Positions 2,880 to 49,019 of a stretch of 64,000 bases of DNA are shown here, one piece after another. A program made the translations under genes and the position numbers. Under the pieces are notes generated by a model that saw only the letters and a list, made by a program, of their open reading frames with translations, was not told where the DNA came from and ran no database searches. The stretch lies in assembly GCA_964106915.2 (NCBI GenBank), contig OZ066915.1. The stretch is one strand, 5' to 3'. Origin of the DNA: Podarcis gaigeae. Lineage: Eukaryota. Position 1 is the stretch's first letter, and the number at the start of each line of letters is the position of its first letter.

Positions 2880-3851
2880 TACCTTGGAAAAACCCATATG
2901 GTACATCAGTGATAGTTGTGAGTCTAGTGATTCTTACTATTACTTTTATAATTTTAACTCTCTTCACAACATAATTCCTGATTACTAGCCCAAACGATGG
3001 GTAAGTGGTTCCATTTTAAAAGAGTTTCCGCAAATTATTAAACATGTTCTCCTAAGGTTCTTGAGATGCCAGCACCTGTTCCCAGTAAAATGGCGCCTGT
3101 GTAATCAAAGCTGTGATTTGAAAAAGGATGCTTTGTGTAAGGAGATGTGCTGCTGCCTCTGATCCCCAAATTGCCAACATGATTATCATGTTCGCTATGT
3201 GTGGCAGATTTCATCTTTGCCACATTGCATCCCACAAAACTCCTAGGAGAGGAGGGAAGAATGAGGGAGTTGGACTAGGTGTTAGCAAACAATTAGTGTA
3301 CAATATTAGAAAATAGATGGGTTCTGGTAGGCAGTTTGTTAGGAATTCATGAGATGTGTCCATATTCTTGTATCGGAGCCAAGACGTTTTAATTTCTTCT
3401 GTGTTTGATGCTATATTTTGTAACATTTTAAATTATACTTAGTTTAATTTATTCATCATTTAATGCTGGCTTATTTTATCATTTTTAAAAGAAAGAATTC
3501 CATTGGGCCAAAATTTTAAATGTATATACACATCCATGTAAAATATATTTGACATAGAATAAGTTGAGGTGACAGGTTGTTGTTTTTATCTAGAAAGGCC
3601 AGCCTACTATGACAATGATGGGAACTTGCCTTTTAATGCAGTATAATATAAAACAGGGCCACGACTTTTAGTAGCAGTAAATGTATTAAGATTATACATT
3701 GAGCTTCATTTAAAAATGGGATTCCCAGTGTTTGTTTGTAGAAAGCAATAGGTCCAGGCTTGGAAAGTTCTTAATGATTTATTTTTATGTATTCATTTTT
3801 AATATTTGTGTACCACCCTTCGTTATAAAAGATCCCAGGGCAGTGTACAAC

Positions 3852-4350
3852 CCGGTGGAGTACAGGGTCAGGTTTAAGGTGCTGGTTTTAACCTTCAAAG
3901 CCCTATACGGCCTAGGACCCTTGTACCTACGGGACCGCCTCTCCTGGTATGTCCCACAGAGGAACCTATGGTCCTCAAATAAAAACATCTTGAAGGTCCT
4001 AGGCCACAGAGAGGTTAGGCTGGCCTCAACTAGAGCCAGGGCCTTCTCAGCTGCGGCTCCAATCTGGTGGAACGCTCTGTCACAAGAGACTAGGGCCCTG
4101 CAGGACCTGACATCTTTCCACAGGGCCTGCAAGACAGAGCTGTTCCACCAGGCCTTTGGTCAGGGCGCAGCCTGACTCCCTCCTCTGGCAGTCTTTACAG
4201 AACTTTAGTTTATGGTTGCCATCAATTTGATTTTAATTAATTTTTATAATGTTTTTAGAATGATGCACTATTTTAGTGTTGTTAGCCGCCCTGAGCCCGG
4301 CTTCGGCTGGGGAGGGCAGGATATAAATAAAATTTATTAATATTATTATT
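3852..4350 (+). mobile_element. L2-clade LINE, 5'-truncated 3' fragment
   Basis: Encodes PVEYRVRFKVLVLTFKALYGLGP...RARAFSAAAPIWWNAL...KTELF (L2 ORF2 C-terminus), then 3' UTR ttagccgccctgagccc...ataaataaa and a (TTA)n tail; matches 47725-48502. Confidence 0.9.
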
Positions 4351-9179: not shown

Positions 9180-9603
9180 AATTGGAATAACAATAAATTC
9201 AGAATTCAAAAATCAATTTAGGGGGGAAATCCATGCAATAAACATTAGATTATCACCAGGGCTAGCTGGCTAAATTAGTCCTATTTGGGCCACCGGGGAA
9301 TTAGCTGTGGGATCCAGAGCTGGTAATCTTCATAGAAAGGGGAGGGGGAGGGAAGGAACAGGAATAAAAGATCAGGCTAAGTTCAAATTGAAAGCCAGGC
9401 AGAATAGCTCTGCCTTAGAGGCCCTGCGGAAGGAAGTTGAATCCTGCAGGGCCCTGGTGTCATGGGACAGAGCATTCCACCAGGTCGGAGCCATCACCAA
9501 GAAGGCCCTGGCCCTGATGGAGGTTAATTTGTCTTCCATAGGGCCCGGGACCTCTAAACTATTATTATTCATGGACCTTAAGGTCCACTGCATGAAATAC
9601 CAG
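9180..9603 (-). mobile_element. L2-clade LINE 3' fragment, more diverged
   Basis: ORF 9372..9692 contains LEVPGP..RARAFLVMAPTWWNALSHDTRALQD..FRRASKAELF, homologous to the other two L2 copies. Confidence 0.85.
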
Positions 9604-10323
9604 TAATGAAGCTCCATTACTGATAGTCTTATCTGTAGCTGCTTCTGTGTTGGATCATGTCCACTGTGGAGTAAGAAGGCAAACACACACACCTTTGTTT
9701 GGTCGCTGGGCTATCCTGATCATTCAAGCATCCCAAATAGTCATATTCCAGAAAGCGCCTTGACCCATCATGGATTCTTCAGTAGTACTCATGGCCGTCT
9801 TGATATGGACAGCACTAAGTTCACCTGTTGCAACTGGAATCCCCATCCACCTTTGTCTGGTCATTAATGACAAATAAAAATTGCCATCCCCACAAACTGA
9901 GTAATTTTAAAACTGAGAATTCAGCTTTGAAATCTGTTGTTATTCTGGAAGTTCCCAAATGCATTTATTGTTCTCTGTTCTTGTTCTGAATTCATGCGTA
10001 GTGAAGAACATGTACGTGAAACCTTGCATATGCAAGCATTTGTGTTGATGAATGAGTGCTGCAGTTGAAAATCATTTGTTTCTGGTCTGTCATTGCAAAC
10101 ACAAGAAGTGTTTACATCAGTGGACTGTTTCCCATGTTAAAATTTACGGACTCAGGAGCATTCCTGAGAATCACATCAAGTCTGAAGAATCTCTGCTTAG
10201 CAGTGGCTACTAGGTAGGTCATACTGCCTTAGAGATAGGGAAGTCGAAGGAGTTTCAGAGTACATAAGTTAGTTACATATATTGACCATATGGGAACTTA
10301 AGCGTTTCTCAGTTGTACTAAAG

Positions 10324-36436: not shown

Positions 36437-36683
36437 AGGCTAAGGTTGTAACCTTTTTCAGACGAGGGCTGGTCCCTCAGACCATGTGGTGGGCTGGACT
36501 ATATTTTGAAAAAAAATATATGAACGAATTCCTATGCCCCACAAATAACCCAGAGATGCATTTTAAATAAAAGGACACATTCTACTCATGTGAAAACACG
36601 CTGATTTCTGGACCATCTGTGGGCCAGATTGAGAAGGTGATTGGGCCTCATCCGGCCCATGGGCCTTAGGTTGCCTACCCCTG
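36437..36683. mobile_element. hAT (Charlie-like) non-autonomous element
   Basis: Right end ccggcccatgggccttaggttgcctacccctg is typical of hAT MITEs; left end degraded. Confidence 0.55.
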
Positions 36684-37219
36684 CTCTAAAGCATACTGTT
36701 GTAAGTTAGGCATTGGCTTTATCCTGTCTAAGCTGGACAAATTCTGACGCTTTGTTGCAATACAGGGATTCTGCTCAATGGCTTGATTCAAATGAAAGAA
36801 AACAACAACACAGGGCTACAGTACACTACAATACAAAATGTGGTACCAGGAGAGGCAAGAAAGGGGAAAAAATAAGGTATATAATTTAAAAGAAAATAAG
36901 TGAAGTATTTTGGTTGAGATTCAAGTATTTTAATAAGCAATTTGCTGTAATTAAGTAAGGATGAAATGGACAGAATGATATTTAGATTTGTTGTCCATTG
37001 TGAGATAAAGTTTTTTTAAAAAGCCTTTAGTACTAGAAATCAGAGAGGAACACATGCTAGCTGAGAGCACTATACAGAAAGTTTCACATAGACAAGAAAT
37101 CTAAGGTGGAATCTACAAATATCTAATAAACGCTGTGAAAATGCTTTTTTTAAAAAAAATGTTTTGAAAAATATTTTGAATTTGCTATAGCTCAACATCG
37201 CCATCTAGTTTCACATTTT

Positions 37220-38352
37220 TAAAAAAATAGTTTTTATTAACCGACCAATCAAATCAAATCGCATCACATAAATTCCGAATCACAAAGCCAAATTTTAAAT
37301 TTTTGTTGGGGGGACCCATATTTCAAGTTCCGAAGGGGGATTCCGATCATCTTCTTGCTGCTGCGTCAATATCCACAAATATGTCCAAAAAATGTTCATA
37401 ATTCTATCCAGTCTTATCTTGCTGTTTCCACATCTCTTCTTGTTCGTATATTTTTCTTTTTTTCTTTATGATCTCTTCTGATAATCTCCTTAAGCAGGTA
37501 AACACCAATTATAATCCTGTGTGAATTTTTCTGTTCGTCCAATCATCATATCAAGATGGTTTCCATATATCATCACTTTCATAAATAACAGCACTCTTTC
37601 CATCATTAATCTCGCAAATCTGTCGCTCTTTAGTCCCTCTGAGGAGGCTCACCCACAATATAAAAACAGCTCTGTTCCTCCTCCCAGACTTAACTCTTCT
37701 GACAGAAATTGCCAAAATGGCGACGGTATTTTTTGCTGCGTCATTCCAAAGCTCTTATGCTTTCCACGATCTTCTTAAAACATGCTTTGGTTAGAAAATT
37801 ATCTCCACACAGTCTTAAATCCACAGCTTAAGTCATTTAAACGGCATTTCTGACTTGTGACTTGGTGGGGGGGGGGATTCTTGGTTAATCACATAGAGAA
37901 AAGAAAGGAAAGTTTCCCCCCCTTCCCCATCCAGTCCCATTGCCGAACATACCGAGCCTTGGTGTGTCTTCTCATGATTTATTCTTGTTCCTCCGACCCG
38001 TCTTGTTTATCAGAGATCTCTTCAGTTAGCAGTCTTTACTCCCCCCCCCTCTTCCTAGAAATATGTGCATTAGCTTCCTCCTAATTGTTTCTTTTGAAGT
38101 TGCTGTAGCTAGAGGCGCGAATCAGAGACAGCGTCCAGGAGCACCGAGATCCGCACAAGGGCTTTCTGCCTAGTGCCCCCACCCCCACAAATTCGGGGGT
38201 GGTATAGGGCACAGCAGGCAAGGGCAGTCCCCCCCCCCACACGCTTGGGGGGGCAGGGAGGCTGTTTACTCCCATCACAGCCTCTTAATTACCTTGTGTG
38301 GGTCGGAGAGATGTTATTGTCAGCCATCTTCCGATGCGCCCCTAGTGGCCCC
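37220..38352 (-). mobile_element. Apparently complete ~1.13-kb non-coding L1-style retroelement
   Basis: 21-bp TSD cgccat(c/a)tagtttcacatttt at 37199-37219 and 38353-38373; minus-strand 5' end ggggccactaggggcgcatcggaagatggctg; minus-strand AATAAA at about 37233-37238 near the 3' end; no long ORF. Confidence 0.75.
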
Positions 38353-39407
38353 CGCCATATAGTTTCACATTTTATGGTTTTTACTCAGGGATTATAGATT
38401 TTGTTTTTGTCTGTGGTTTGATTAAATAAAACAAAATTGAAAAGTAAATTGAGTTTAGTTCCCATTGACATTGACAAGATATCACTAAGCTTTGACTTAA
38501 TTTTCACATTGATTTAAAATAGGATCTAAATAGGACTAGCGTACTGTGGACCCAGTCCTTTGATTTGGGTCCTAAGAACAATGGGGCTCTCTCACCTCCT
38601 TCCCACTGCGCTCCTTGGACACTTAAAAGGCCACTCCTGAAAAACAGGGGAACCTCTGGAATAGTATTCACAGTAGCATGAGGGACTGCATCTGTGGAGA
38701 TGGGAACTGGCAGAAATCTCCCCTAATCAGAAGTGCATTCCACTCAAGCAAGTTTTCCATTGGATCAATAATTATAGTACTGTGTTGACACAAAGGAGAT
38801 TGGAATCTTTTACTATAATCATCAATGTTTTTATTTTGAAACATTGTGAATTTAAAGTTTGTTCCTCAAAGATACAAAATGACCAGAAATCTGCAAAACA
38901 GTTGGCTTCCTTTTTTCTTTTCTTTTCTGGTCTCTCTCATCCTGAGTTTTAGATTCGTGGCTATATGTTTGTGGTGGAAACTGAATCTTACATTTGTGGA
39001 CAGAACTTGGACAGGCAAAGTCAACTCTTTGTCTTCCTTCTCTTATTAGAATCTGAATGACTTTCAGTGCTGCAATTAAGGTCTTTTTTGAGGTAGCTGT
39101 TTAAATATTTATTAGCATTGGAGTATTGGGTTTTCTAAATAACTCTTAAGGCATTTGCATGCACACACACAAAACTGTTGACAATTCTGTAGTGGAATAG
39201 ACTAATTCATTTTTATTTATTTTTTTGGGACTCAGTCAAGTGTGATTGGCTTAGTTACTGAGGAATTTATTTTAGGGAAAAGTCAGTGTCAACTGAAAAA
39301 TGGTTCCATTCTGAAAAGACAAAAATTCCCTTACTTGTGAAAATGTGTCTTGGCAGCCAATTTGACTTCTGATACAAGATTTAACACTTCTCTTGAAACA
39401 TGAATAT

Positions 39408-40959: not shown

Positions 40960-41852
40960 AAGATGTTGACAAGCTGGAACGTGTGCAGAAGAAGGCAACC
41001 AAGATGTTCAGGGGTCTGGAAACTAAGCCTTATGAGGAGCGCTTGAAGGAGCTGGGTATGCTTAGCCTGGAAAAGAGGAGACTAGATGTTGCTGTTGTTT
41101 AGTCGTTTAGTCATGTCCGACTCTTCGTGACCCCATGGACCAGAGCACGCCAGGCACTCCTGTCTTTCACTGCCTCCCGCAGTTTGGTCAGACTCTATGT
41201 TTGTAGCTTCGAGAACACTGTCCAACCATCTCGTCCTCTGTCGTCCCCTTCTTCTTGTGCCCTCCATCTTTTCCAACATCAGGGTCTTTTCCAAGGAGTC
41301 TTCTCTTCTCATGAGGTGGCCAAAGTATTGGAGCCTCAGCTTCACGATCTGTCCTTCCAGTGAGCACTCAGGGCTGATTTCCTTCAGAATGGATACATTT
41401 GATCTTCTTGCAGTCCATGGGACTCTCAAGAGTCTCCTCCAGCACCATAATTCAAAAGCATCAATTCTTCGGCGATCAGCATTCTTTATGGTCCAGCTCT
41501 CACTTCCATACATCACTAGGAGATAAGATAGCCATCTTCAAATAACTGAAGAGCTGTTGTATGGAAGAAGGAGCGTGCTTGTTTTCTCTTGCTCTGGAGG
41601 GTAGGACTCGTACCAATGGCTTCAATTTGCAAGAAATGAGATTTCGACTGAACATTCAGAAAAACTTTTTGACAGTAAGCTGTTCAGCCGTGGAACAGAC
41701 TCCTACGAGAAGTGGGACTCTCCTTCCTTGGAGGTTTTTAAGCAGAGGTTGGATGGCCATCTGTCATGGATGCTCTAGCTGAGATTCCTGCAGAGCAGGG
41801 GTTGGACTAGATGACCCTTGGAGGCACTTCCAACTCTAAGACTCTATGATTC
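40960..41852 (+). mobile_element. CR1 LINE 3' fragment interrupted by BovB
   Basis: Left part encodes [40 protein letters not shown]; right part continues (..LFSLALEGRTRTNGFNLQEMRFRLNIQKNFLTV) to the CR1 3' end ggactagatgaccc...tccaactc...ctatgattc. Confidence 0.92.
41087..41517 (-). mobile_element. BovB (RTE clade) LINE 3' fragment nested in CR1
   Basis: MYGSESWTIKNADRRRIDAFELWCWRRLLRVPWTARRSN...LQYFGHLMRREDSLEKTLML; 3' end gtcacgaagagtcggacatgactaaacgactaaacaac. Confidence 0.95.
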
Positions 41853-47997: not shown

Positions 47998-48502
47998 AGG
48001 GAATCAAACTGGCTCCAAGCCAAAGGCCAGGCGGAACAACTCTGTCTTACAGGCCCTGCGGAAAGAAATCAGATCCTGCAGGGCCCTGGTCTCATGAGGC
48101 AGAGCGTTCCACCAGGCCGGAGCCAGAGTTGAAAAGGCCCTGGCTCTGGTTGAAGCCAATCTAACTTCCTTAGGGCCCGGGACCACTAGGGTGTTATTAT
48201 TTATGGACCTTGAGGCTCTCCGTGGGGCATACCAGGAGAGGCGGTCCCGTAGGTACGAGGGTCCTAGGCCGTGAAGGGCTTTAAAGGTCAAAAGCAGCAC
48301 CTTAAATCTGACCCTGTACTCCACCGGGAGCCAGTGCAGCTTGAAAAGCACTGGGTGAATATGCTCCCATGGCAGAGACCCCGTGAGGAGCCTCGCTGCA
48401 GCATTCTGTACCCGCTGGAGTTTCTGGGACAGCTTCAAGGGCAGCCCCGCATAGAGCGAATTACAGTAGTCAAGCCTGGAGATGACCGTCGCATGGATCA
48501 GC
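47725..48502 (-). mobile_element. L2-clade LINE 3' fragment, young, with (TTA)n tail
   Basis: Open ORF 48004..48504 LIHATVISRLDYCNSLYAGLPLKLSQKLQRVQNAAARLL...LHWLPVEYRVRFK; the 3' UTR ends in (AAT)x16 on the + strand (47725-47773). Confidence 0.95.
47962..47991. repeat. (GA)n microsatellite within the L2 3' UTR
   Basis: About 15 units. Confidence 0.95.
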
Positions 48503-49019
48503 AAAAATGCACTTTGGTTATTCAGACGTCTAAAATGTGTGGGGCTACAGAGTAAAAAAATATGAAATAGTGTTTTTCACCTTCAAAGATGTAACTAGTA
48601 ATAATTTGTTGGACTTCAAGAGGAATTCATTTAGTTTATATAAATATTTACAGGTGCTTTTTGACCCCACATGGGCCTCCAAAGCAACCCAGAGAACACA
48701 ATAAGAACAATTAAAAATAAAATAACCAGTTAAAATTTAATCAAATTATTCAGTTATGTGAATTAGATATACAAGCCCAGAAACAGAAGGTAAAAAAGAA
48801 TATTTTCATTTTAATAGTGCTTCTCAATCTCTCTTACTTTAGTGTGCCTTCTAAGGAATGGGAACTAGGCGCAACTAAGTTACAGCACAATATTATGCAT
48901 GACTAGTCAGAAGTAATGAATTTAATTAGGCTTCCCCTTACATATGTGGATATAGGACTGTACACTTACCTGGGAGTTAGCGTCATTCAAAACTAATAGC
49001 TTATAAGTAAACATACACA

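Follow-up and report, generated by a model that had tools for sequence, protein, structure and literature searches.

The window, a stretch of 64,000 nucleotides from the lizard Podarcis gaigeae, carries on its minus strand one complete copy of a multicopy family of non-coding retroelements. The element is protein-free, 1.13 kb long and present in about a thousand copies in the lizard genome; it is likely to be mobilised in trans by L1 and appears to be transcribed by Pol II. The first-pass annotation of the window had described a non-coding retroelement of about 1.1 kb flanked by a target site duplication (TSD), and this observation is confirmed. The window copy belongs to lineage A and its boundaries are common to copies genome-wide; its features are as follows.

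38353..38373, minus strand: 5' copy of the TSD, 21-bp direct repeat
37220..38352, minus strand: body of the retroelement, non-coding, complete, 1,133 bp
38323..38352, minus strand: conserved head with the G-run and the YY1-like AAGATGGC (38323-38330), putative promoter core
38289..38327, minus strand: micro-ORF of 12 codons; its start, the first ATG, overlaps the YY1-like site
38287..38294, minus strand: splice-donor-like AGGTAATT, found in 8 of 8 group majorities
38113..38292, minus strand: predicted multi-hairpin RNA domain, nt ~61-240, from folding z-scores
37331..38112, minus strand: non-coding middle, rich in A, fast-drifting and roughly constant in length
37300..37330, minus strand: conserved 3' motif, 918 matches at three mismatches or fewer, 0 in the control
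37247..37267, minus strand: short (GATTT/GATGT)n repeat of varying length
37220..37238, minus strand: AATAAA (37233-37238) and A/T-rich tail running into the TSD
37199..37219, minus strand: 3' copy of the TSD, 21-bp direct repeat

Most of the initial description of this copy was reproduced. The two copies of the TSD are identical at 20 of 21 positions, and the minus strand reads t/AAAATG at the junction. The single mismatch is a later substitution, since contigs of two other organisms (runs X3 and X7) have C at 38359 and with it a perfect repeat (21/21). The contigs of organisms A, B and D run from the element head into the same right flank, and therefore the window insertion is common to the three; those of B and D carry the perfect TSD. 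No empty site was seen, run X14 spanning the left flank only and no element-crossing joint being present among the joints listed. The YY1-like AAGATGGC, placed by the first-pass annotation about 22 nt in, occupies nt 23-30 of the body, AATAAA lies near the 3' end, both 5' hairpins named earlier are found in the copy, and A is abundant in the sense strand (355 of 1133 bases). The 5' end had been called G-rich and CpG-retaining; it is indeed G+C-rich (57% in lineage A), but the observed-to-expected CpG ratio is lower in the first 300 nt (0.42) than in the rest (0.63). The tRNA search of the element was negative, in agreement with the first-pass annotation, and no long ORF that could represent ORF1 or ORF2 occurs in the window copy. 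The Rfam scan of the element yielded a sole sub-threshold match at E<=1, and a self-cleaving ribozyme was rejected for lack of an Rfam match. From the majority sequence of its lineage, the window copy differs by 28 mismatches in 1,128 aligned bases (2.5%).

Several other repeats lie in the window. Beside the element, positions 36480-36690 belong to a very high-copy repeat, possibly a MITE, with a unit of about 63 bp, which other copies carry in duplicate. Positions 37100-37165, part of a different repeat, are covered by RNA reads as well. Frames at 3714-4175, 9372-9710, 48004-48576 and 41082-41537 resemble C-terminal parts of reverse transcriptases, judged by eye to be of the L2/CR1 type (three) and the Bov-B/RTE type (one).

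The genome-wide search for colinear copies of about 1.1 kb with their own TSDs revealed a multicopy family, which refutes both a single copy and a one-off deletion of an ordinary L1. Degenerate patterns of the head and tail motifs gave 1,034 and 918 matches genome-wide, and the reversed controls gave 0. In the similarity search, 34 of the best 40 of 1,635 candidates, the window copy included, were single-piece and near-full-length; among these best 40, the other near-full-length copies are 89-95% identical to the window copy. The completeness of copies was assessed at 142 distinct head loci followed by a sufficient length of DNA; this sample leans to well-preserved copies, because the loci were picked by similarity or as the best motif matches, and it includes 118 copies complete in one piece, 12 reaching the 3' end in pieces and 12 that break off. 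Anchoring by the tail gave 22 full-length copies, seven 5'-truncated ones and one with a disrupted head (30 loci).

Some loci have a more complex structure. Internally deleted copies with differing breakpoints were found at L094, L106, L121 and L125, and in three of them the TSD spans the shortened copy. At locus L179 the tail is 5'-truncated, and a family head in opposite orientation lies about 400 bp upstream of it, which represents either two neighbouring copies or an inversion. At L125 / L247 (G000:C2:41715550-41724050) a full-length L1 has inserted into a member of the 1.13-kb family. On C2, three heads of the family are spaced about 34 kb apart, which suggests a tandem segmental duplication, and at L129 / L297 a family copy directly adjoins a long tandem-repeat frame resembling a reverse-strand zinc-finger gene.

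The tree of 104 complete copies contains several lineages, and eight groups were delimited on it by eye. The group majority sequences are 1,125-1,153 bp long and 72-96% identical to each other; copies differ on average by 2.3-6.3% from the majority of their own group, the groups are distinguished by diagnostic changes, and young copies are present in all eight. A plain processed pseudogene of one gene, which the first-pass annotation had named as a possible refutation, is ruled out because eight groups with 72-96% mutual identity each hold young copies. Conservation across the eight group majorities is highest in the first 100 nt (43 and 39 invariant columns of 50), intermediate in the last 200 nt (26-33 per 50) and lowest in the middle (17-33 per 50-column window). 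The body is non-coding: only 1-8 of the 24-41 indels between any pair of groups are multiples of three, which indicates the absence of coding constraint. No encoded reverse transcriptase or endonuclease was found by ORF, Pfam and profile tests. The ORF remnants of up to 167 aa seen in the 3' half of single copies were also rejected as candidates. None of the three tried had a Pfam match beyond one at E 0.086, and none scored above shuffles against the L1 ORF1/ORF2 profiles. The 3'-half frames are not kept between groups, and of the eight groups that of group E alone (113 aa) exceeded the 95th percentile of shuffled sequences (106).

The insertion signature was surveyed at 91 loci, 72 of which had a recognisable 3' end. 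Of the 72 copies with both ends, 65 are flanked by a TSD of at least 12 bp, mostly 16-18 bp; chance repeats are excluded, since a repeat of at least 12 bp was absent from all 300 mispaired flanks. The position before the TSD (-1) is T in 42 of the 65 copies, and the first five bases of the TSD are mainly A or G. The resident L1s have a TSD in 24 of 40 loci, with a mode of 17-18 and the same purine-rich start. Bov-B insertions, according to the available part of PMC13295347, have a microsatellite at their 3' end and are preceded by a T stretch that lies about 10 nt before the TSD; such a stretch is absent from the family, T occurring in 15-19 of 75 sites at positions -11 to -9. The combination of 5'-truncated copies, an A-rich tail, a T/purine-rich target and a long TSD is that of the resident L1s, and this resemblance makes it likely that the family is mobilised in trans by L1. 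Because the L1 sample was of clade 1 only, the mobilising LINE is identified by the insertion signature alone, and a clade-2 L1 or Tx1 may be the partner instead.

The conserved head is likely to be the core of an internal promoter. The 12-codon micro-ORF that opens in it is equally long in all 8 group majorities and in 131 of 142 head loci, ends at the donor-like GGTAATT in all eight groups and shows silent as well as replacement changes. Further downstream, nt 61-180 are predicted to fold better than shuffled sequences in all five groups compared (z -2.0 to -3.7), and the 5' domain of the window copy has a folding z of -4.0; the 3' region has no folding signal. The consensus 5' fold has 42 pairs, of which 23 are invariant, 9 change on both sides and 9 fail to pair in at least one group; most of the two-sided changes map to one deep split of the tree, the counts having been made without a tree-aware null. 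The A and B boxes are the internal motifs of Pol III promoters. No exact B box and no near A box were found in the eight group majorities, each of which contains 4-6 internal runs of four or more T and AATAAA. The 3' end is A-rich and carries no (CAA)n or (ACCTTT)n, and an extra G of variable occurrence is seen at the element 5' ends. The missing boxes, the T runs, AATAAA and the variable 5' G point to Pol II rather than Pol III as the polymerase.

Raw RNA reads of a related organism, derived from other copies, cover the whole body, with a strand bias in one of two bulk runs. In that run (X23), 646 reads were placed, and the depth is 49-76 on one strand versus 0-12 on the other by first-mate strand; the majority strand is sense if the library is of the dUTP type. 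Run X24 of the same study is weaker and less strand-biased, and two single-cell runs have no strand bias. The RNA reads contain neither a pile-up of starts at the element 5' end nor a spliced joint from the donor-like AGGTAATT. Read-through contributes to the X23 signal, since 23 reads extend into the flanking DNA at the 5' end. The family as a whole is transcribed in the related organism, and it may be self-promoted there.

The observed family structure, insertion signature and non-coding status can be joined with a putative promoter, polymerase and partner into one scheme, to which we give a probability of about 80%: a capped, polyadenylated Pol II RNA, started from the element's own head, would be reverse-transcribed by ORF2p acting in trans, at a nick made by the L1 endonuclease. 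The G-run and the YY1-like site of the head would start the capped transcript, and AATAAA would supply its poly(A) tail. The ORF2p of resident clade-1 L1s would nick a T/purine-rich site and prime on this tail, and cutting of the second strand 16-18 bp away would produce the TSD. Owing to the short length of the element, most copies would retain the head, so that new source copies could found new lineages. Speculatively, the 5' hairpins and the micro-ORF might help the RNA to reach the ribosomes making ORF2p.

The same mobility would be expected of an ancient bipartite or HAL1-decay derivative of an extinct or unsampled L1/Tx1 lineage, an origin for which the chances appear slightly below even. 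In the available parts of PMC5381506 and its supplement, the mammalian L1 start consensus and zebrafish L1-1D resemble the head of the family, and the layout of the body, with a structured, G+C-rich 5' part ahead of A-rich sequence, is L1-like. The clade-1 L1s of the lizard (L061-L080, L228-L247) also share with the family the TSD length, the target signature, the extra 5' G and a AATAAAAATTAT-type tail; unlike the family, they are 6-7 kb long, encode ORF1 and ORF2 and begin with GACTTCCGG, the clade-1 type of start as given in the available part of PMC5381506, and no sequence is alignable between the two. The L1 sample comprised 40 long loci and 39 shorter L1-candidate loci (L031-L080, L219-L247), and its identifiable lineage was clade 1; all sampled L1s with an identifiable start bear GACTTCCGG and not a G-run with AAGATGGC. 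Against descent from L1, neither the head nor the body nor the tail showed homology to the sampled L1s in blastn, tblastx and nhmmer searches, made with profiles of the whole element, the head and the tail, the matches inside L242 and L247 being resident family copies. None of the 142 head loci runs into ORF1/ORF2, so no autonomous element sharing the head is present among them. Nine broken-off heads read 9 kb onward contained no L1 ORF1/ORF2, one broken-off head runs into an L2/CR1-type reverse transcriptase fragment, and none of the 30 tail-anchored loci follows an ORF2. Frameshift-tolerant alignment to the ORF2 C-terminus scored 25-30, within the null maxima of 32-39 (control 60 versus 38). 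In the ORF1 profile test, one of five groups slightly exceeded the shuffles (41 versus a maximum of 36), which favours L1 ancestry, in a test that is insensitive, its positive control scoring 37 versus 37.

The genome is rich in intact L1 ORF2s of about 1,250 aa. Among the RVT_1 and endonuclease candidates retrieved (best 150 of 33,781 and 7,802), clade-1 L1 was the only L1 found. The search for clade-2 L1 with PF02994 gave no match and was silent in the controls too; PF17490 gave weak matches only, seven of nine having a frame length and place like those of clade-1 ORF1, and none of the eight matches of the clade-2 head pattern is an L1. These negative results do not imply absence. Tx1 was likewise not found in the genome by the searches tried. 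The first-pass annotation had assumed that both L1 ends were kept with the coding core gone, yet neither end matches any sampled L1; its suggestion of a HAL1-derived element fares no better, there being no conserved long ORF and no detectable homology to the sampled L1s. Its G-run/YY1 argument rests on mammalian L1. What stands of its proposal is a multicopy, non-coding and non-autonomous family with an L1-like insertion signature; the L1 or HAL1 origin is unsupported by the sampled loci. The sequence comparisons indicate that no sampled L1 gave rise to the family by a recent deletion.

The genome does produce L1 deletion families, as can be seen from a separate 2.1-kb multicopy HAL1-like family (L133:290-2390, minus strand; L248-L259), and this speaks for an L1/Tx1 origin of the 1.13-kb family. 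The 2.1-kb family has 5,385 candidates, and most of the best 40 are near full length at 87-94% identity. It combines the head of a clade-1 L1 with a frame of 253 aa derived from ORF1, the last ORF2 codons, an L1 3' UTR and TSDs, and it matches parts of the L1 in L247 at 67-76% identity. Tests like those applied to the 1.13-kb family readily traced this family to L1.

It is less probable, and on balance unlikely, that the family originated as a cellular Pol II transcript, either a host promoter with a first exon and intron start or an lncRNA, that was retroposed together with its promoter and became self-amplifying. The ATG within the YY1-like site and the fixed 12-codon frame ending at GGTAATT resemble a first exon, and the failure to find LINE homology agrees with such an origin; but no parent gene was present among the best 40 genome matches of each search, the micro-ORF has accumulated silent and replacement changes alike, spliced reads were not seen, and a plain processed pseudogene is refuted. 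A Pol III SINE, or mobilisation by Bov-B/RTE or CR1/L2, is highly improbable: there is a short microsatellite close to the 3' end, and the window contains elements of the Bov-B and L2/CR1 types, but the family has no tRNA or other small-RNA head, no B box, internal T runs, an A-rich tail with AATAAA in place of (CAA)n or (ACCTTT)n, and no T stretch upstream of the TSD.

The L1-mobilised Pol II element preferred here can be compared with several known systems. ORF-absent bipartite LINEs (RIME, NARTc, Bov-A, RTESINE and Vingi derivatives) are likewise non-coding, with a presumed Pol II internal promoter and mobilisation in trans, and in the available part of PMC5786205 they are reported, as of 2018, solely from RTE, Ingi, Vingi and R2, not from L1. 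They are defined by ends matching those of a partner LINE, whereas no such partner was found among the clade-1 L1 loci. SVA of hominoids is a long non-coding retroelement moved by L1 and a composite of known repeats with a VNTR; the lizard family is also long and non-coding, but composite repeats and a VNTR were not seen in it. HAL1, as far as described in the available parts of PMC5753468 and PMC5786205, is also non-autonomous, with an L1-type TSD and an A tail, but encodes ORF1p, while the lizard family has neither a conserved long ORF nor detectable L1 homology. For Anolis, U6-L1 chimeras only are described in the available part of PMC4476161, and no pertinent statement was found in PMC7983390. 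No published description of such a lizard family was found in a search whose scope left out subscription papers, Repbase Reports and Dfam, and supplementary repeat libraries may hold an unnamed or L1-labelled entry.

The closest likeness, by description and not by sequence comparison, and with no claim of shared ancestry, is to Sadhu of Arabidopsis, for which the available part of PMC2848041 gives 39 related sequences and TSDs of 7-16 bp. Both are non-coding, with a poly(A) tract, a TSD, no small-RNA head and no Pol III boxes, and they share a conserved 5' motif, divergent subfamilies and LINE-type target sites (PMC2848041, available part); Sadhu is transcribed in sense, as the lizard family would be if the X23 library is of the dUTP type. 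Unlike Sadhu, the lizard family has about 1,000 copies, TSDs of 16-18 bp, a YY1-like head and AATAAA. By analogy, it seems that the family works like Sadhu or an ORF-less bipartite LINE. Tentatively, and with odds short of those for an L1/Tx1 derivative, the family may represent the vertebrate equivalent of Sadhu. It would then be a Pol II retroelement that is long-lived, encodes no protein, drives its own transcription, lacks both a small-RNA head and a LINE parent, and rides L1 as successfully as a SINE does, with the fixed 1.13-kb size, the YY1-type head, the 12-codon micro-ORF and the co-varying 5' RNA fold kept across lineages up to 28% diverged.

The successful non-coding passengers of L1 in vertebrates are mostly Pol III SINEs, and L1 prefers its own RNA. 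An element with about 1,000 mostly full-length copies, likely of Pol II type and with parallel lineages, would represent another way to parasitise L1, and the family would show that reptile L1 is efficient in trans. The conserved ends and the drifting middle map the cis-signals that are needed, and thus the way in which a non-coding RNA overcomes the preference of L1 for its own RNA becomes directly testable. The insertions provide presence/absence markers for these lizards, and the family may scatter about a thousand putative promoters.
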